This document shows positions 1 through 5,686 of a DNA stretch of 5,686 nucleotides, piece by piece (position 1 is the first letter of the stretch; every line of letters starts with the position of its first letter). The stretch covers positions 1-5,686 of the IMG/VR virus record IMGVR_UViG_3300045988_002953; one strand, written 5' to 3'. Source of the DNA: a virus. Made by a program: the position numbers and the translations under genes. The notes below the pieces were generated by a model. That model was given only the letters and a program-made list of their open reading frames with translations, was not told the DNA's origin and did not search any database.

Positions 1-77
1 CTAATTTGTCTTTCCAGTAGTTTCCGAAGTTGCTGCCGATGTACTGATTGTTCTTAGGCGTTGTTTCGGCTGCTGTG
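1..77. repeat. Left copy of a 77-bp exact direct terminal repeat (identical to 5610..5686). This is the overlap of a circular genome assembly; unit length is 5,609 nt.
   Basis: Base-by-base comparison: ctaatttgtctttccagtag...ggctgctgtg is identical at both window ends. A single ORF (VP2) reads continuously across the implied junction. Confidence 0.95.
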
Positions 78-841
78 TCTTTTTTTGCTTTGTTGTCACT
101 TGTTTTTTTGCCGCTGGTGTTGTTTTGGTTGAGCCATCCGGTTAAGTCTGGAAAGTCCGTTTGATAGCTGTTATAACCGCTACTGTGCTGCTCTCCGTGC
201 GAGTCTGTCCATGACCAGCTTTCCGCTTTGGTCTTGCTGTAGTTTGCTACTGTGCCGGAGATCGTCGGCATACTGGATGACTGCGTCCCGACGCTTGGCG
301 CGCTTATGCTGCTCTGTCCAATGGTCCCTTGTGCTCCGCCCGGTGTGCTTGCTCCGCCTTGCTGGTATGCGAGTATTGGATTCAACCCCGCTTTTTTCAT
401 GTCGGCCATTGCTCTTTGGTAGCTCGTGTTGCTCATACGCTCTTGCCATGCCCTGTTAGCCGCCGCTTCTGCTGAGTTGTAGGACATCGTTGCATCCTGC
501 TGGATGCGATTATAAACGCCCTGCTGGATAGCTCCCAGAGTGTTTAAGCCCAGTGCCATGAGAGAGTTCTTATCGTTTTGCTGACTCTGCATTCCTTGCG
601 CTTGTTGACTTTGCCCCAAAAAGTATTTGGCGAGTTCTTTTGTTTGGTCAACATTTACGCCGCTTTCGCCGGTCATTGTTGACCCGCTTGCGCCTTGGCT
701 TGTCTGGTATCCGCTTGAGCTTGTTGCTCCGCTGCCGGATGTGCCTTTGAGTGCGTTGAATATGCCTGTTCCGGTGTTTATGAGTGTGCTCACGCCGCCC
801 AGTAATTTTGCGCCTGTTGCTAGTGCTGCTAAAAGTGACAT
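1..841 (-). CDS. VP2: DNA pilot / minor capsid protein VP2 (phiX174 H analogue), 5' portion. It starts at ATG 841..839, runs off the left edge and continues on the circle at 5609..5596. Total length is 284 aa.
   Basis: Manual translation of the minus strand gave no stop over 280 codons: [26 protein letters not shown]...[35 protein letters not shown]...NYWKDKL. SD AAGGAG lies at 848..853, 6 nt before the ATG. A G/S/T/Q-rich N-terminus followed by an (N/E)RxxSxTxYQRxxxDxKxAGLNP-type core is what I recall for Microviridae VP2. The ORF is absent from the track only because it crosses the window edge. Confidence 0.88.
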
Positions 842-862
842 TTTTTTCTCCTTTACAAGAAT

Positions 863-882
863 AGCCGGGTTTTGACCCGGCT
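863..882 (-). terminator. Stem-loop in the 46-nt VP1-VP2 intergenic gap. Candidate partial terminator/attenuator or mRNA stabiliser.
   Basis: agccgggt (863..870) pairs perfectly with acccggct (875..882) around a 4-nt loop. In minus sense it sits 5 nt after the VP1 stop and is followed by AUUCUUGU, an imperfect U tract. Confidence 0.45.
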
Positions 883-887
883 TTGTA

Positions 888-2549
888 TTAGTGATGGTCG
901 ATGAGTCCCGGAATGGAGTACACCGGCATACACCGCGTTGTCTTGTTCATGAAGTAGAAGTCTGCAATAAAGTCCGGCTGAGCCTGTACCGCAAGAGTCC
1001 GCTTCATTTCGGCTTCGCCCTGTTCCATCCAAGCCGTGCTCAGTGTGGGAAGCGCGTTGTAGTCCTGTGCATAGTGCCATGCATCGAGACTTTGTTGTGC
1101 GTTGCTTCTGAACAGTCCGGTAACCTTGCTCGGCTTATACCGATAGTCGGCCCATGCTTCCTGATAGCCGAATGCTTCATCGTCCTTTGTGTTGCCCTGT
1201 GCATAGATTTCTTTGTTGAGGATCGCTTGTTCGCCGATGTTTGCCAGTACCGGCCAGTAGTAATCATATCGGCCTTTGCGGCTCCACATGCGTTCGATAC
1301 CCTGCTGATAGGTCTGGTCGGTGCGGACGACTGCCAGACCCATGATGAGACCATGCTCAGTAAAGGACTTGGTAAACATAGGTTTGTTCATGGTGGTTAC
1401 ACTCAACGCCGCTGTGTTGCCCAGCGGACTCGTGCCGTCGGTCGAAGAGGTCTGGATAACCTGAGACACGTTGATAGGCAGTCTGTAGCCGCCCAGATAT
1501 TCCGGAATCTGCATACGAGAGTCAGGAGAGATAACTCCGAAGTGCTCGCGCAGTACCTCGCGGTATCTCGTGCCGCCGCGTGCGTCTTTTTCCAGCAGTT
1601 TCTGAATCTGGAATGCCTGTCTCAGCTGGTTGATGGTTGCTGCTGTTACTGCTCCAAGGTCTGCGCCGATGTATGCGTAACTGCTTGTTTCTTGCGTTAC
1701 CGGGTTTCCAAAGCTGTATCCGCTTTTTGTTGCTCCTCTCATCCTTGCGTCTGAGCTTTCGCTCTGGATTAAGCCCGCTTCGTTCCCTCCCCATGTCCAG
1801 GGACTGCTGTAGGTATCGCCTTTTTTGATGGACGTTGCCGGTTTTGTCATTTCTTCGTCGAGATATGTTTTGATTGGCGCGTTACCGCTCAGCGGTATGG
1901 TGATCGGCTCGCCTTTCTGAGGCTCCGGCAAAGCTCCGGTGTAGTAGTCAAACACCTTCGCTGCCTTGAGAGGCTTTGCCAACGTGATAGCGCTGTCATT
2001 GGTAGCGCTGCCGTCGTTTTTGCCGGTCGTGGTTGCGTCTGTTACCTCTACGAGTGTCGGCTGCGTGACGTTTTGGTTTCTGAACCATTCGTTGTAGATG
2101 AGGCCGTATGCTCGACCGGGCAGAGCGCTCACGCTGATGCCCTCGACTTTGGTAGGCAGTCCCAGATAGTCCGCCAGCGTACCTTCCGCCCATCCGCCTG
2201 TCGGTGCCGTCACTTGCGGCACACTGTACTCCGTCTTAGGTGTCCATGCGGTTTCTTTGTTCTCGCCCATAAACTCCTTCCAGTGTTCCCATAAGAGTCG
2301 GTTTGGCACGAAAAAGAAGTAGAAATCACAAAAGGCGTTGTCCATCACCGGGAAGATTGGTGTTGCCATTCGCATCACACACGCAACATCGACTTGGTGC
2401 GTATCACCCGGTAATACTTCATCCAGATAAATCGGGATGAGTTCGCCGGTGTTAAAGGTGGTTTTGTTGTCACTGTTGCGCTGGAATCTGCTTCGGCTTA
2501 CTCCTACTTGTGGATTCTGTGCAAAGTTGTATTCACTGTTGCGGTTCAC
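888..2549 (-). CDS. VP1: Major capsid protein VP1 (F-protein family), 553 aa, GTG start.
   Basis: The N-terminus [50 protein letters not shown] is the hallmark Microviridae VP1/F motif (SRSxF...HKTTF..G.L.P....EVLPGDT). The size is typical of gokushovirus VP1. SD AAGGAGG lies at 2557..2563, 7 nt before the start. The start codon reads GTG (2549..2547). Confidence 0.97.
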
Positions 2550-3022
2550 TCTGCTTCCTCCTTTTTCTCTGTTGCGTTTTTAGCCGGCTTTTCTTCCTTC
2601 AGGAGTCCCATTTTATCGGCCCATTCTGTCGTGCCGTAGGCCATGACGTATTTTTCCACGTCGTTGTCCCATTTGTTTTTGATTTCGATAGGCAGCTTGT
2701 CAAACTCCGCTTCCGCGTCTTTGATACGCCCATACCACTCGTGGTAGTTTGTCGGCGCGTCCGAAATATCGGTCATCGTCTCGCTGGTCTGCCAGTCCTG
2801 ACTGCCCAGTGCAGTCGGGTCATACGTTGCCCGCTTGATGATGTTTTCGATTTTGGTTTCATCCAGACGGCTCTGGATGAGTGCATAGACGTCCGTTTCT
2901 CCGGTTTTTACCAGCTCCCGGCCTTCTTCCGTTACCTTGTACTCATACTCAGGTTCATGGCCGTTGCCGGTCAGGCTCGTATGCCTTACCTGCCCGCTGT
3001 ATGCGCTCCTAAATTCACTCAT
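2546..3022 (-). CDS. VP3: Internal scaffolding protein VP3, 158 aa (internal start of the 231-aa track ORF).
   Basis: The start is ATG 3022..3020, with a GAGGG SD about 8 nt upstream. Sequence: MSEFRSAYSG...AEAEFDKLPIEIKNKWDNDVEKYV...[16 protein letters not shown]. The FxxLPxEI(R/K)xKFxNDxExF-like block and acidic tail match my memory of gokushovirus VP3. The 73 codons upstream in the track ORF are S/R/T-rich junk that overlaps ORF80 in another frame. Confidence 0.8.
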   Translation of the reverse strand: MSEFRSAYSGQVRHTSLTGNGHEPEYEYKVTEEGRELVKTGETDVYALIQSRLDETKIENIIKRATYDPTALGSQDWQTSETMTDISDAPTNYHEWYGRIKDAEAEFDKLPIEIKNKWDNDVEKYVMAYGTTEWADKMGLLKEEKPAKNATEKKEEAE

Positions 3023-3257
3023 TGGGCTTGCCCTCACATACGCACGTGTTGACGTTATCGACGATTTCGCCTGTCTCGTCCTCCATGGTGCAGATGTAGT
3101 GCAGCCGGAAGTCTTCCGGCTTGACGCTGATAAAGCTGTCCTTGTTCTTCTGCTGGCTTTCGAAGAGCCTGCTTGCGACTGCGTCGTTCTGTTGTTCGAA
3201 GAGTCCGCTATAGCTCTTGGCCACTTTGTCGTAAATTGCATAGTATCTTTTCAGCAT
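3015..3257 (-). CDS. Small non-structural protein, 80 aa, function unknown (possibly VP5-like).
   Basis: The ATG 3257..3255 shares one base with the upstream TAA (TAATG). The stop overlaps the VP3 start (ATGAGTGA). Composition is coding-like. The N-terminus MLKRYYAIYDKVAKSYSGLFEQQNDAVASRLF resembles, from memory only, small 'nonstructural' proteins annotated in gokushovirus genomes. Confidence 0.7.
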   Translation of the reverse strand: MLKRYYAIYDKVAKSYSGLFEQQNDAVASRLFESQQKNKDSFISVKPEDFRLHYICTMEDETGEIVDNVNTCVCEGKPNE

Positions 3258-3376
3258 TACAGTCTCGTGCCTCCTCGCATGTTTTTCGGGCTTACGTTGA
3301 CGGCCTTGGTTTTCTTTGCCGTCTGGGTAAACACTTTCGTGTCTTTCGACTTTTTGACCTTACTCCGCTTCGCCAT
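3257..3376 (-). CDS. Small basic DNA-binding/packaging protein (phiX174 J / chlamydiaphage ORF8-like), 39 aa.
   Basis: The internal Met of the 90-aa track ORF gives MAKRSKVKKSKDTKVFTQTAKKTKAVNVSPKNMRGGTRL. It has 13 K/R in 39 residues. The C-terminal MRGGxRL matches the conserved end of gokushovirus J-like proteins as I recall them. SD AAGGAG lies at 3385..3390, 8 nt upstream of the ATG at 3376. Confidence 0.8.
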   Translation of the reverse strand: MAKRSKVKKSKDTKVFTQTAKKTKAVNVSPKNMRGGTRL

Positions 3377-3587
3377 TGTTGATTCTCCTTCTGATTTGTT
3401 CCATTTCAATGTCTTTCGCAAAAGCCTTTTTGCGGAATGCCATATCGATGTAAAACTTGGCGTCCTCGATTGTGGCGGCTTTGCATACATGTTTGTACGT
3501 TGTTTCGATTTCTTTGTAGGTTCTTGCAAGCATTTCTGCTAGTGTTTTGTCGGGCTGGTCTCGCACATTCCATGTTTTGGTCGTCAT
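3360..3587 (-). CDS. Hypothetical protein, 75 aa, probably helical.
   Basis: ATG 3587..3585 is preceded by SD AAGGAG (3593..3598). The 3' end overlaps the J-like gene start by 17 nt. I recognise no family. Confidence 0.7.
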   Translation of the reverse strand: MTTKTWNVRDQPDKTLAEMLARTYKEIETTYKHVCKAATIEDAKFYIDMAFRKKAFAKDIEMEQIRRRINNGEAE

Positions 3588-3745
3588 GGTTACTCCTTCG
3601 GCTGGTTGCCTTCTACTGCGTGGTAAATCTTATCCAGCATGGCTAAGATCTTGCGTATGTTGTTAAACAGCGCGTTAATCTCCTTGAAGGTCAGAGCGGT
3701 TCACCTCTTTCTAAAAATTATTTTGTATAAATGTTTTTGTAAAAT

Positions 3746-3759
3746 AGCACTTCTGTGCT
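3746..3759 (-). terminator. Weak stem-loop after ORF59.
   Basis: The minus-sense sequence is AGCAC-agaa-GTGCT followed by AUUUUAC. The stem is only 5 bp. Confidence 0.25.
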
Positions 3760-3771
3760 GTTTAACCTTGT

Positions 3772-3951
3772 TTATTGCTCTACCCAATTTTCCGGGTCGA
3801 GTGCTGCCGTTGTGCCTAGCAGCTCTTTATTGATGCGGTAGCATCCTCCATTGCTCTGGTTAATAACGTATCTGTATTTTGCGGTATCGTAGGAGCCGAT
3901 TTCTTCTAGCTCCCTCAAGGCTTTGACACTCAGACGATTGATGGTATTCAT
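3772..3951 (-). CDS. Hypothetical protein, 59 aa. It is the first gene after the promoter and falls below the ORF-track size cutoff.
   Basis: Manual translation: MNTINRLSVKALRELEEIGSYDTAKYRYVINQSNGGCYRINKELLGTTAALDPENWVEQ*. An SD-like AAGGGGG (3959..3965) lies 7 nt before ATG 3951..3949. Base composition is balanced and coding-like, unlike the AT-rich flanks. The gene sits about 18-20 nt downstream of the predicted transcription start. Confidence 0.55.
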   Translation of the reverse strand: MNTINRLSVKALRELEEIGSYDTAKYRYVINQSNGGCYRINKELLGTTAALDPENWVEQ

Positions 3952-3975
3952 CTCTATACCCCCTTCTTTATCTGC

Positions 3976-4004
3976 ATTATACCACAGATTTTTCGATTTG
4001 TCAT
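3976..4004 (-). promoter_or_regulatory. Near-consensus sigma70/sigmaA-type promoter with an extended -10.
   Basis: The minus strand reads ATGACA (4004..3999), a 17-nt spacer, then TGG-TATAAT (3984..3976). That is 5/6 for the -35, a perfect -10 and a TGn extension. An A/T-rich tract (AAAATAAAAAGTTTCAGAAAA) lies upstream. It faces ORF59 and the whole gene chain. Confidence 0.6.
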
Positions 4005-4113
4005 GAGGTTTTCTGAAACTTTTTATTTTAGGTCATGTGGTAGGCGCGGTGCGCCGTGCGAAGAGCATGACGCAACTTTTCGGTTTCGCTCGCCGGACGG
4101 CCTTTATTTGCTT

Positions 4114-4140
4114 TTTCAACACTTTCAACACTTTCAACAG
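4114..4140 (+). repeat. Three tandem 9-bp repeats: TTTCAACAC, TTTCAACAC, TTTCAACAG.
   Basis: Read directly: 4114..4122, 4123..4131 and 4132..4140. Confidence 0.95.
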
Positions 4141-4141
4141 G

Positions 4142-4150
4142 TTTTCCACA
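4142..4150 (+). promoter_or_regulatory. DnaA-box-like 9-mer TTTTCCACA (8/9 to TTATCCACA).
   Basis: It directly abuts the third 9-bp repeat. It shares the TCCACAAAA extension with the perfect box at 4206. Confidence 0.45.
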
Positions 4151-4187
4151 AAATGTTGCACAAAGGTTTTTGTGTATATTGCTACAT

Positions 4188-4205
4188 TTTCAACATTTTA
4201 ACAAG
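4188..4205 (+). repeat. Further repeat units TTTCAACAT plus a degenerate TTTAACAAG.
   Basis: Read directly, in the same orientation as the other copies. A further variant, ATCAACA, lies at 4220..4226. Confidence 0.8.
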
Positions 4206-4281
4206 TTATCCACAAAAATATCAACATTAAAATAATCCAAAAAATATCGTTCCAAGGATAAAAATTCATAGTATTCAACAT
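4198..4281 (-). CDS. Speculative 27-aa hydrophobic peptide, MLNTMNFYPWNDIFWIILMLIFLWITC.
   Basis: SD AGGGAG (4289..4294) lies 7 nt before ATG 4281..4279, and the stop is TAA 4200..4198. The reading frame is built from the repeat units and the DnaA box themselves, so it may be a by-product of those motifs. Confidence 0.2.
   Translation of the reverse strand: MLNTMNFYPWNDIFWIILMLIFLWITC
4206..4214 (+). promoter_or_regulatory. Perfect consensus DnaA box TTATCCACA.
   Basis: It is an exact 9/9 match to the classical DnaA box. It has the same orientation as the 8/9 box 64 bp upstream, and both are followed by AAA(A). Confidence 0.5.
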
Positions 4282-4289
4282 TTCAACAC
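4272..4289 (+). repeat. Two more tandem 9-bp repeat units: TATTCAACA, TTTCAACAC.
   Basis: Read directly. This brings the count to six perfect TTCAACA cores within 4115..4288, all in one orientation. Confidence 0.9.
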
Positions 4290-4293
4290 TCCC

Positions 4294-4308
4294 TACTACT
4301 ACTACTAC
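4294..4308. repeat. (TAC)5 microsatellite.
   Basis: tactactactactac was read directly. Confidence 0.95.
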
Positions 4309-4313
4309 AACAA

Positions 4314-4341
4314 GTTATATATAATAGATGATGTTTGTAAA
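4314..4341 (-). promoter_or_regulatory. Second, weaker candidate promoter.
   Basis: The minus strand reads TTTACA (4341..4336), a 16-nt spacer, then TATAAC (4319..4314). Both hexamers score 5/6. It would transcribe through the repeat/DnaA-box array. Confidence 0.3.
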
Positions 4342-4382
4342 TACACGTGCGTGCGTGCGCGTTTCGCGCGTGCGTGCGCGTG
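4341..4382. repeat. GC-rich alternating purine-pyrimidine tract containing a 13-bp direct repeat CGTGCGTGCGCGT (4350..4362 and 4369..4381).
   Basis: 4341..4362 (22 nt) and 4365..4382 (18 nt) alternate Pu/Py perfectly and are separated by TT. The central GCGCG-ttt-CGCGC (4357..4369) can form a small hairpin. Confidence 0.9.
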
Positions 4383-4405
4383 AGCGTAATTGAGCCTATG
4401 ATTTG

Positions 4406-4435
4406 CCTCGTACCTCGGTAGCCCCTACGAGGGGC
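4406..4435. other. Two mutually exclusive hairpins.
   Basis: The first is CCTCGTA (4406..4412) paired with TACGAGG (4426..4432) around a 13-nt loop. The second is GCCCC (4421..4425) paired with GGGGC (4431..4435) around a 5-nt loop. They share bases 4426..4432. Confidence 0.5.
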
Positions 4436-4443
4436 GTACACGA

Positions 4444-4484
4444 AAGGGGTCTCCCGTGGCGACAGGAGACCCTTTCTTGTTTTT
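4444..4484. terminator. Strong GC hairpin with flanking A and T tracts (intrinsic-terminator-like).
   Basis: GGGTCTCC (4447..4454) pairs with GGAGACCC (4465..4472), extendable by A-T/G-T pairs at 4444..4446 with 4473..4475. On the plus strand it is followed by TTTCTTGTTTTT. In minus sense (downstream of rep) the U tract is only CUUUCG. Confidence 0.5.
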
Positions 4485-4526
4485 ATGATGCTTTTAATTA
4501 GCCGTGGATAGCTATGAAACTTGGGT

Positions 4527-4563
4527 GTGGGCCTAATCCTCTTCTTGACAGGATTAGGCCCAC
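4527..4563. terminator. 14-bp perfect-stem hairpin whose stem begins 10 nt after the rep stop.
   Basis: gtgggcctaatcct (4527..4540) pairs perfectly with aggattaggcccac (4550..4563) around a 9-nt loop, cttcttgac. There is no good U tract in either sense, so it may be a structural ssDNA element rather than a classical terminator. Confidence 0.45.
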
Positions 4564-4572
4564 TGACACCAT

Positions 4573-5595
4573 TTAGAGAATCCCTCTTGCTTTACTAAAG
4601 CGTTCTCTGAGATTCTTTTCCTTAATTTTTCCTTGCTCTTCGATAGTTACGTCTGTGTTTGACATCTTGACTTTAAGTGCATTTATTGCACTTGACTGTC
4701 TTTTTTTTTTAATCTCCCACAGCCTTTTGGGATTTTCAGCTTCTTGCATCTTGTCAAAGTACCTTGGAATGGGCCTTTTTTTGCCGTTAAAATATAATCC
4801 ATCGTCTTTGTACATTTGTTCTTTGTGCTCTTGGTAGTAGTCGTATCCTAGACCCGGATTTCGTGACATGCAGCAGTAAGGCGCTGGTAGCCCTAGCTCA
4901 TTGTATCGTTTTGTGTCGTTGCCGTAGGCTTTTTTTGTCACATATCCCGCTACATACGCCATTGTTTCCGGTGACGCCTCTGTAATTATCACATTGCCCA
5001 TTCCCCAGATTTTGTCTATTGTTTCGCTCTCAAAGTATGGATTATTGCCTCTTTTTTTCTTTAGGTCTGGTATTTCTAACCCATAATAGATTGCATGGTG
5101 ATGCGGTCTGCCTGTGGTTTCGCCGTATTCGCCGCAATAAAAATATCTGAGGTCTGTACCCCATTTATCGGACATTTCTTGCTTTTTTCGGAGTCTTTTG
5201 TTAAAAAGTACCATGTCCTCTTGCAATAGGATTTGCACAACTTCTGGTGCGTCTCCCGTTGTCCACTGGTGTGTTGCTCCACGTATAAGTTCGCCTGTTG
5301 CTCTTACCATTCCTGGCACGTACTCTTGATTCCACGTCAGGGTTAAAAACCATACTGGTGACAGTGTTTTTGACTCCATCAGCATCCTTGTCTCCCAATC
5401 CTGCCGCTGTCTGAGTCTGCATCCCAGACATTTGCCACATGGCAGTAACATCACGTCTGTTCTGTACGCGATGCTTTCATACGTTGCTTTTGGATTGTGC
5501 GCCCTTTCGCGGTACGTCTCTAAGGTCATGATTGACCCTGTTATGTTATGGTTGTTTGGGTTGTATACTCTGATAAGTGGTCTTTCACAGCTCAT
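4573..5595 (-). CDS. VP4: Replication initiation protein VP4 (HUH rolling-circle endonuclease, phiX174 A analogue), 340 aa.
   Basis: It carries a Cys cluster LPCGKCLGCRLRQRQDW, motif I FLTLTW, the HUH motif RPHHHAIYYG and the catalytic Tyr motif YVAGYVTKK. SD GGAGG lies at 5603..5607, 7 nt before ATG 5595..5593. The ATG directly follows the VP2 stop (TAAATG). Confidence 0.95.
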   Translation of the reverse strand: MSCERPLIRVYNPNNHNITGSIMTLETYRERAHNPKATYESIAYRTDVMLLPCGKCLGCRLRQRQDWETRMLMESKTLSPVWFLTLTWNQEYVPGMVRATGELIRGATHQWTTGDAPEVVQILLQEDMVLFNKRLRKKQEMSDKWGTDLRYFYCGEYGETTGRPHHHAIYYGLEIPDLKKKRGNNPYFESETIDKIWGMGNVIITEASPETMAYVAGYVTKKAYGNDTKRYNELGLPAPYCCMSRNPGLGYDYYQEHKEQMYKDDGLYFNGKKRPIPRYFDKMQEAENPKRLWEIKKKRQSSAINALKVKMSNTDVTIEEQGKIKEKNLRERFSKARGIL

Positions 5596-5686
5596 TTATT
5601 TACCTCCCCCTAATTTGTCTTTCCAGTAGTTTCCGAAGTTGCTGCCGATGTACTGATTGTTCTTAGGCGTTGTTTCGGCTGCTGTG
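5596..5686 (-). CDS. VP2: 3' end of VP2 (...[24 protein letters not shown]), with stop TAA at 5598..5596.
   Basis: This is the same frame as 1..841 when 5610 is equated with position 1. Bases 5610..5686 duplicate 1..77. Confidence 0.88.
   Translation of the reverse strand, partial: TAAETTPKNNQYIGSNFGNYWKDKLGGGK
5610..5686. repeat. Right copy of the 77-bp terminal direct repeat.
   Basis: It is identical to 1..77. Confidence 0.95.

Follow-up and report, generated by a model that had tools for sequence, protein, structure and literature searches.

An array of short, co-oriented repeats in the genome of a gut gokushovirus is probably the DnaA-box cluster of a phage-borne mimic of the host's chromosomal replication origin (oriC). 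The array lies in a stretch of 5,686 nucleotides (IMG/VR record IMGVR_UViG_3300045988_002953, positions 1 to 5,686), here called the window, where an initial annotation made from the letters alone had described it as iteron-like or as a landing pad for a transcription factor. We read it as an oriC-like DnaA-box cluster because it adjoins a (CTA)5/AT-rich element and holds two perfect DnaA boxes, features that were not in the initial annotation. The architecture of the element, its conservation among related phages, its mobility and its near-identity to Ruminococcus origins are directly visible in the sequences compared below.

The box array and the unit downstream of it

The 7-mer TTCAACA is found six times in the window, always on the + strand (positions 4115, 4124, 4133, 4189, 4274 and 4282), whereas shuffled sequences average 0.83 copies with no more than 3 in any, none of 200 reaching six, so that the array exceeds chance as first claimed. 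The 9-bp phasing ascribed to the tandem copies holds for the first three (Tandem Repeats Finder: period 9, 2.9 copies, 100% match) but not for the final two, which are 8 bp apart. The degenerate copies noticed between the repeats prove to be conserved: the relaxed motif TTYMACA occurs 12 times in the window against 3.2 expected, 8 of these being clustered + strand matches, and in all eleven co-oriented 9-mers of the TTTTC(A/C)ACA type are arranged in three clusters. Two of the eleven, TTTTCCACA and TTATCCACA, are canonical DnaA boxes.

On the + strand, the array is followed by CTCC, (CTA)5, CAACAAGTTA and then 30 nt at 83% A+T, an order that can be compared with the basal unwinding system (BUS) of bacterial origins. 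A BUS consists of one or two DnaA boxes, a spacer with a GC cluster of about 4 bp, at least three DnaA-trios and then an unwinding element (PMC8287927). Specifically, the box lies 0-16 bp from the trios 3'-[G/A]A[T/A]-5', whose consensus 3'-GAT-5' reads 5'-CTA-3' on the top strand (PMC8287927, PMC7561715), and it carries at most two mismatches to the box consensus, often as one of a tandem pair (PMC8287927). The module considered here, window 4113-4343 (~230 bp), comprises the following features:

4113-4162, + strand: cluster 1, five co-oriented DnaA-box-like 9-mers
4113-4121, + strand: TTTTCAACA (cluster 1)
4122-4130 and 4131-4139, + strand: CTTTCAACA (cluster 1)
4142-4150, + strand: TTTTCCACA, canonical TTWTNCACA (cluster 1)
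4154-4162, + strand: TGTTGCACA (cluster 1)
4158-4175: hp1, small variant-specific palindrome GCACAAAGGTTTTTGTGT, between clusters 1 and 2
4187-4226, + strand: cluster 2, four co-oriented copies
4187-4195, + strand: TTTTCAACA (cluster 2)
4195-4203, + strand: ATTTTAACA (cluster 2)
4206-4214, + strand: TTATCCACA, perfect DnaA box (cluster 2)
4218-4226, + strand: ATATCAACA (cluster 2)
4247-4258: hp2, small palindrome TCGTTCCAAGGA, within the AT-rich stretch that separates clusters 2 and 3
4272-4288, + strand: cluster 3, with TATTCAACA (4272-4280) and ATTTCAACA (4280-4288) as the origin-proximal box pair of the BUS-like unit
4289-4292, + strand: GC cluster CTCC, a 4-nt spacer of BUS type
4293-4307, + strand: (CTA)5, five consensus-type DnaA-trios (3'-GAT-5' on the - strand)
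4308-4317, + strand: CAACAAGTTA, near-invariant CAA-CAA extension of the trinucleotide tract
4314-4343: AT-rich tract, 83% A+T, candidate DNA-unwinding element (DUE)

The interval first assigned to the array covers it, but ends one base before the linked GC cluster, (CTA)5 and AT-rich tract (4289-4343).

In the consensus of 89 distinct modules, the copies are fixed in position and TTCAACA and TTCCACA replace each other at the same sites. About 780 TTNNACA copies in these 89 arrays point in one direction, against 15 in the other. They are TTCAACA in 595 cases, TTCCACA in 99, TTGCACA in 58 and TTTAACA in 18, while TTCGACA, the complement of the Spo0A 0A box (TGNCGAA) to which the repeat had speculatively been likened, is not represented (0 of ~780); the commonest variant is the DnaA-box core TTCCACA. 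The positions of cluster 1 are kept across 58-89 distinct modules, and the same strings are present in the Ruminococcus oriC L280 described below. Cluster 2 reads TTTCAACA, TTCAACA, TTTTCAACA, TTTCAACA in most relatives, and cluster 3 has the phage consensus TTTTCAACT TTTTCCACA, the equivalent place being taken by TTTTCAACAgTTTCAACA in host origin L370 and by TTTTCAACTTTTCCACA in L371.

The downstream unit is more constrained still: conservation in the module peaks not at the boxes but in the GC cluster, in the (CTA)3-5 trios, in CAACAAGTTA and over the AT-rich tract. As in a BUS, the spacer before the trios is a GC cluster, which in relatives is nearly always 4 nt long (CTCC, GCCC, CCCC or TTGC). 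At least three trios are present, with CTA repeats 1-3 conserved at 90-99% in 115 distinct modules, and the AT-rich tract follows the trios in all relatives, just as the DUE does in the host origins. Its location is not that of a BUS: instead of belonging to a chromosomal origin flanking dnaA, the element sits between the gene for VP4, the replication protein (Rep), and ORF59.

Counterparts in Ruminococcus chromosomal origins

A scan for the triple repeat in one genome per bacterial species (185,579 species genomes) returned at least 120 matches, which included many unrelated arrays and, among them, the 158-kb contig L280 of an uncultured Ruminococcus metagenome-assembled genome (MAG). No prophage with VP1 or VP4 was present among the at least 120 genome matches listed.

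Contig L280 shows the order yidC, rnpA, DnaA (Pfam Bac_DnaA, Bac_DnaA_C), a 1,346-bp spacer and DnaN. The spacer contains 29 copies of TTCAACA (25+4) and 8 of TTCCACA, with 0-1 per flanking coding stretch, and it ends in TTTTCCACAgTTTCAACACCCC CTACTACTACTA TATTTATTTACGTTTTTTTT, that is, TTTTCCACAgTTTCAACACCCC(CTA)4 followed by AT-rich DNA. When window 4281-4307 is compared with this spacer end, 26 of the 27 positions are identical.

The dnaA loci of relatives of L280 were also compared. In L370 the spacer carries 30 copies (22+8), with none in 3.1 kb of coding DNA, and the BUS reads TTTTCAACAgTTTCAACAtacc(CTA)5 and then a T-run, corresponding to two TTCAACA-type boxes, TACC and (CTA)5. In L371 there are 17 copies (13+4) in the spacer versus 0, and the BUS is TTTTCAACTTTTCCACAGCCCCTACAACAACAACAATATATTTAT. 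Of 373 loci, those with an exact copy of the 25-mer TTTTCAACTTTTCCACAGCCCCTAC are 19 phage loci and L371, where it lies in the BUS immediately before dnaN. The TTCAACA/TTCCACA exchange at the same positions is likewise common to the phage arrays and the host BUS.

The longest exact phage–host matches measure 25-27 nt for the L280 clade and 14-15 nt for R. flavefaciens-type origins, with 10-15 nt in coding controls. The R. flavefaciens-type origins have fewer TTCAACA boxes and carry CAA-rich trinucleotide runs (e.g. TTTCAACCGCCC-CAACTACTACAACAA-TATATAT in L366), so the CAACAA extension of the phage trios is host-like too. CAA repeats occupy the place of CAACAAGTTA in host origins (CAACTACTACAACAA-TATATAT in L366, CTACAACAACAACAA-TATAT in L371).

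The DnaA proteins themselves were inspected at the recognition helix, which starts GGRDHSTIV in all five Ruminococcus DnaA proteins examined (L280 3054-4463; L366-L369); the L280 helix reads RDHSTIVY, versus RDHTTV(I/L)H in B. subtilis, Aquifex and E. coli. Thr435 is listed as a base-contacting residue (PMC13451751). The helix variant is compatible with a changed preference among boxes and may underlie the use of TTTTCAACA. All together, since TTTTCAACA is dominant in origins of the L280 type, swaps with TTTTCCACA in the BUS and accompanies a DnaA helix that reads RDHSTIVY, it appears to be a lineage-specific DnaA-box variant of a group of gut Ruminococcus species, and bacteria of this group are therefore the likely hosts.

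Two further loci deserve mention as observations in their own right. In L239 (Ruminococcus MAG RUG11850), a 600-bp non-coding stretch (500-1130) is full of TTTTCAACA and TTTTCCACA in both orientations, often as the composite TGTGGAAAATGTTGAAAAC, and dnaA is not adjacent within the 8 kb examined; this stretch may be a second DnaA-box cluster or one half of a bipartite origin at the contig edge. In L425 (IMG/VR contig 3300029231_000002, 95 kb, classed as viral), the textbook BUS string TTATCCACATTATCCACAGCCCCTACTACTACTGCTTTTAAAAG at ~705-760 could stem from host sequence included in a provirus call, or from a further virus with an oriC-like element. A permissive BUS pattern scan of viral contigs gave mostly chance matches.

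Distribution, orientation and mobility among gokushoviruses

The phage genome is circular, 5,609 nt long (window 1-77 is repeated at 5610-5686), has all its genes on the - strand, and finds its closest GenBank relatives among gokushoviruses of the mammalian gut. The Rep stop codon and ORF59 are separated by 621 bp of non-coding DNA, which holds the array and has 28.5% G+C in window 4101-4300; ORFs overlapping the array region have no Pfam or PHROG match, and indels occur there among relatives. The genes are:

5595-4573, - strand: VP4/Rep (Pfam REP_ORF2-G2P; PHROG replication initiation protein)
3951-3772, - strand: ORF59
3587-3360, - strand: ORF75
3' end of the 90-aa ORF 3529-3257, - strand: J-like basic peptide, 39 residues (PHROG 10695)
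3257-3015, - strand: VP5, the former ORF80 (Pfam Phage_ORF5)
on the - strand: VP3 scaffold (Chlamy_scaf)
2549-888, - strand: VP1 (Phage_F)
from 841, spanning the circle junction, - strand: VP2 pilot protein

The module is present in at least 127 gokushovirus genomes, whose Reps are 32-96% identical to that of the window; this and the other genome and contig counts from pattern scans are lower bounds. Specifically, a 220-bp segment (4110-4328) is 70-91% identical to unannotated stretches of about 30 gokushovirus records that are divergent elsewhere, and in IMG/VR all 45 complete contigs with a close Rep (82-96% identical) possess the module, with ~190 or 208 bp from the array to a near-invariant CTACAACAAGTTA downstream. 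Pattern scans added further carriers with Rep 32-48% and VP1 43-56% identical. The repeats are thus conserved in related genomes in the manner of a protein-binding array, as first surmised. By contrast, the array, (CTA)n and the box are not present in phiMH2K, Chp2 and SpV4, despite their homologous Reps, and neither is CAACAAGTTA.

This distribution bears on the binder. The candidates put forward at the outset were ORF59, ORF75, ORF80 and a host factor. ORF59 is detectable in 23 of the 127 carriers and ORF75 in 72, which speaks against both. ORF80 turns out to be the ordinary VP5, which like Rep is universal in gokushoviruses; VP5 is annotated in phiMH2K and ORF5 in Chp2, yet both phages are without the array. 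As for Rep, the repeat does not co-vary with it, and the module variants do not track the Rep tree: L106, L103 and L055, with Reps 43-45% identical, possess nearly the same variant as the window, and a different one is found in L013 and L031, with Reps 86-95% identical. These patterns fit a conserved host factor rather than a co-evolving phage protein, so that the last of the suggested binders is the one retained.

In the majority of genomes, the module directly follows the Rep stop codon and runs antisense to the genes. In L109 (1542-1753) and L157, a cassette of ~215 bp is precisely inverted with respect to the rest of the genome (aligned to L051), the breakpoints coinciding with the module edges. 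Moreover, in a clade with Rep 32-37% identical (L094, L130, L143, L159, L163 and twelve others) the module runs in the direction of the genes, upstream of VP4. With its variants also shuffled between Rep lineages, the module is, as judged from these alignments, a mobile, invertible cassette.

In either arrangement the compositional skew goes with the genes and not with the module, the AT skew measured at four-fold degenerate sites being +0.52 and +0.54. The idea that the module sets the packaged strand finds no support in this skew test, which is not decisive, phiMH2K also being A-rich in its sense strand. More generally, the coding (-) strand sense is A-rich and T-poor (A 34%, T 18%), all 90 relatives have an AT skew of about +0.5 at four-fold sites, and the bias is common to phiMH2K but not to Chp2 or SpV4.

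A conserved single-strand fold was sought without success. RNAalifold predicted 0 consensus pairs in 58 diverse modules, and an Rfam search of the intergenic region found no family, a chance miRNA match (E = 0.64) being the sole return. The palindrome hp1 is 75% paired in the alignment, and other module variants have different small palindromes in other columns, for which reason it was rejected as a covarying hairpin. The palindrome hp2 (ACGCTTTAGCGT and similar in relatives) has 4-5 bp and modest covariation, its outer pair being A-T in 28 cases, T-A in 18 and G-C in 4, with pairing in 74.5% of cells versus 26-47% in slid controls. When the alignment was checked by eye, compensatory changes that would pair the TGTTGCACA element with cluster 3 over a long range proved inconsistent. 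Because it is independent of orientation and has neither a conserved single-strand fold nor an Rfam family, the element would act in duplex DNA, and the module fits a duplex-DNA protein-binding element.

The surroundings of the module show other features. Two alternating purine/pyrimidine tracts, (CGTG)n, split by TTT (window 4344-4382, 26% A+T), are kept in many relatives just beyond the edge of the invertible cassette; on the + strand they could pair with G-T wobbles only, or form Z-DNA. Reverse complements of such tracts flank the inverted L109 cassette, and the tracts may for that reason mediate the inversion. Between the Rep stop codon and the module there are three GC-rich hairpins (4415-4436, 4444-4475 and 4527-4563), one of them a perfect 14-bp stem directly after the Rep stop and one a terminator-like - strand stem; they may act as a transcription terminator or as an origin of the complementary strand. 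On the other side, just before ORF59, a strong sigma-70-like promoter match (ATGACA-17-TATAAT with an upstream TG, 4004..3976 on the - strand, 11 of 12 positions) likely drives the downstream gene block. The J-like PHROG 10695 peptide, detectable in 123 of the 127 module-bearing genomes, is probably a J/VP8-like DNA-packaging protein with an internal start codon.

Proposed function, alternatives and known systems

On the oriC-mimic reading, host DnaA would bind the boxes in the double-stranded replicative form, and from the two proximal boxes it would oligomerise over the GC cluster and onto the trios, whereupon the adjacent AT-rich tract would melt. The opened DNA could then start or assist replicative-form replication, either by host helicase loading or by giving the HUH Rep access to single strands. 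We infer DnaA binding, unwinding and this downstream use. A stronger version, in which the phage owns a complete functional mini-oriC and DnaA, instead of or together with the HUH Rep, fires replicative-form replication, is possible but in our estimation doubtful. If it were true, the phage could persist as a DnaA-dependent, plasmid-like episome (carrier state) with replication tied to the host cell cycle, the cassette would be an exchangeable host-range module for replication between phages, and box variants such as TTTTCAACA, paired with a DnaA helix of T435S/H439Y type, could serve to assign hosts to uncultivated gut microviruses.

Several points weigh against the oriC mimic. The near-invariance of CAACAAGTTA exceeds the variation seen in host origins and may betray an additional constraint, for instance a Rep site. 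The window's proximal boxes, TATTCAACA and ATTTCAACA (gap 4), have 3 mismatches each to TTATCCACA and 2 to TTWTNCACA, and so fall outside the strict published cut-off of at most two mismatches for the better box. In many relatives, however, the box at gap 4 is TTTTCCACA, which has 1 and 0 mismatches, and because the host L370 BUS itself uses two TTCAACA-type boxes, the pair would qualify under a lineage-specific box. What points to DnaA, and not another origin-binding protein, as the ligand of TTTTCAACA is enrichment and position only, and the likely hosts are assigned by mimicry alone. In addition, the array boxes of E. coli oriC are 11 bp apart centre to centre, so that the tandem spacing of 8-9 bp is tighter here. 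Microviruses are generally considered to rely on nothing beyond Rep and host elongation factors, and DnaA has no established role in them.

A serious rival, although we give it a rather small chance as the explanation, is that the module is a DnaA decoy: the many copies of the replicative form would titrate DnaA, blocking or deregulating host initiation or coupling phage development to DnaA. Eleven boxes per genome on a multicopy replicon, identical to those of the host oriC and with a putative function independent of orientation, would suit such a role. The effect would be like that of datA or the 'inc' effect of B. subtilis DnaA-box regions, and cloned DnaA-box clusters are known to cause incompatibility. 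The most conserved parts of the module, however, are the GC cluster, the trios, CAACAAGTTA and the AT-rich tract, which are needless for titration and in a BUS specify unwinding (PMC8287927). Since the trios, the GC cluster and the AT-rich tract are best conserved, we favour origin opening over pure titration; the two are compatible.

The repeats might otherwise be Rep iterons, that is, the 'bind' locus of a rolling-circle double-strand origin for the HUH Rep (VP4), with a nick site in (CTA)n-CAACAAGTTA. We regard this as quite improbable. Direct repeats do adjoin a near-invariant block, and the constancy of CAACAAGTTA surpasses that of hosts; AACTTG/TTG on the - strand and TACTAC/AAC on the + strand resemble what we take to be the phiX174/pC194 and pMV158 nick sites, a lead only. 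But the same repeat accompanies Reps 32-96% identical to the window's, with variants off the Rep tree, and it is missing, together with (CTA)n and the box, from phiMH2K, Chp2 and SpV4, whose Reps are homologous. The cassette is also inverted in several lineages with strand composition unchanged, and repeats and block recur nearly identically in bacterial oriC without phage genes. The nick-site reading of CTACAACAAGTTA was dropped on similar grounds: the block is not in phiMH2K, Chp2 or SpV4, hosts carry CTACTACAACAA-TATAT, and the cassette inverts.

A transcriptional landing pad, with operator or activator sites or - strand -35-like TTGAAA hexamers for the ORF59-to-VP2 operon and with a phage ORFan, Spo0A or another response regulator as binder, is very unlikely. 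The array does lie 110-290 bp upstream of the good - strand promoter at 4004..3976, a weaker promoter-like TTGATA-18-TAAAAT is present inside it, and TGTTGAA is one mismatch from the 0A box. Promoter-like sites nevertheless number 3, versus 2.0 in shuffles, which is not above expectation; ORF59 and ORF75 are not in all carriers, TTCGACA is never used, several lineages have the cassette in another place or the opposite orientation with respect to their genes, and the trios, the GC cluster and the identity to host oriC stay unexplained. Just as hard to credit is a single-strand origin that would fold in the viral strand and prime synthesis of the complementary one (ssoA-type, or a DnaA-box hairpin 'ABC primosome'), or a small RNA: inverted repeats of the window (I6) do put the TTATCCACA box in a potential stem and hp2 shows some covariation, but the I6 pairing is limited to one module variant, the 58 modules have no conserved pairs and no Rfam family, and inversion of the cassette, which persists, would put the signal on the wrong strand.

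The initial annotation was right that such an array is not part of microvirus replication as described. In the literature searched, we found no paper treating 'DnaA box' and Microviridae together, the sole paper on Gokushovirinae and DnaA concerns Rep evolution, and the gokushovirus literature examined discusses dif motifs or hairpins, not an oriC-like element; we thus found no prior description of a gokushovirus oriC mimic. To our knowledge, the replication mode and origin location of gokushoviruses are uncharacterised and their hosts mostly unknown. The dif-type attachment site of lysogenic gokushoviruses is a 28-bp motif of two 11-bp arms and a 6-bp spacer, like the host dif, with dif on either side of the prophage (PMC7062461). 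No convincing XerCD dif match was seen near 4305-4345, by eye against dif consensus sequences only.

Gokushoviruses are among the most abundant phages of the mammalian gut. If the proposal is true, a phage with an HUH Rep also depends on, or manipulates, the host initiator DnaA. The comparison offers a host prediction, an uncultured Ruminococcus clade, for more than 120 phage genomes, and suggests TTTTCAACA as a lineage-specific DnaA box. The natural fragment of ~230 bp would be a compact substrate for studies of DnaA-box/DnaA-trio unwinding, and the mobility and invertibility of the cassette suggest host adaptation at the level of replication, exchangeable between phages.

Among known systems, the DnaA-titrating loci (E. 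coli datA, the DnaA-box clusters or 'inc' regions of B. subtilis) resemble the module in that a dense DnaA-box cluster outside the chromosomal origin could sequester DnaA; they are without a trio/DUE unwinding module, whereas the phage conserves this part most strongly. With rolling-circle double-strand origins, such as those of the pMV158 family, the iterons of geminiviruses and circoviruses and the 30-bp origin of phiX174, the module has in common that, in a circular ssDNA replicon encoding a Rep, direct repeats and a highly conserved short block adjoin each other in the principal non-coding region. Unlike theirs, its repeat does not co-vary with Rep, is common to bacterial oriC, occurs in either orientation and is not in other gokushoviruses. 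The theta origins of plasmids and phages (P1 oriR, F, pSC101, RK2, R6K) recruit the host initiator through a few DnaA boxes, set beside iterons that serve their own Rep initiator, and replicate in theta mode; like them, the phage is a mobile replicon with host DnaA-binding sites at what would be its own origin, but its element is chromosomal-origin-like down to the trios, no separate iteron set was seen, and the replicon is a rolling-circle ssDNA phage.

The closest likeness is to the BUS, whose characterisation reportedly includes work by Richardson (2016 and 2019). It has been characterised in B. subtilis incC (Pelliciari 2021, PMC8287927) and in C. difficile oriC2 (Oliveira Paiva 2020, PMC7561715), where the trio CACCTACTACTATTACTACTA, or 5'-CACCTACTACTATTACTACTATGA-3' (CACC-TACTACTATTACTACTA), is preceded by a GC cluster and three boxes (PMC7561715). 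The phage element differs in being carried by a 5.6-kb ssDNA phage with an HUH rolling-circle Rep and not by a dnaA-dnaN locus, and in being compact (~230 bp, 11 boxes), mobile and invertible, with an invariant CAACAAGTTA after the trios and an activity that is so far a candidate one. The two agree in the order, orientation and spacing of their elements, with co-oriented boxes leading to a 4-nt GC cluster, at least three CTA and an AT-rich tract, and with the Ruminococcus BUS the likeness extends to near-identical sequence, 26 of 27 nt in the window and an exact 25-mer in its relatives.

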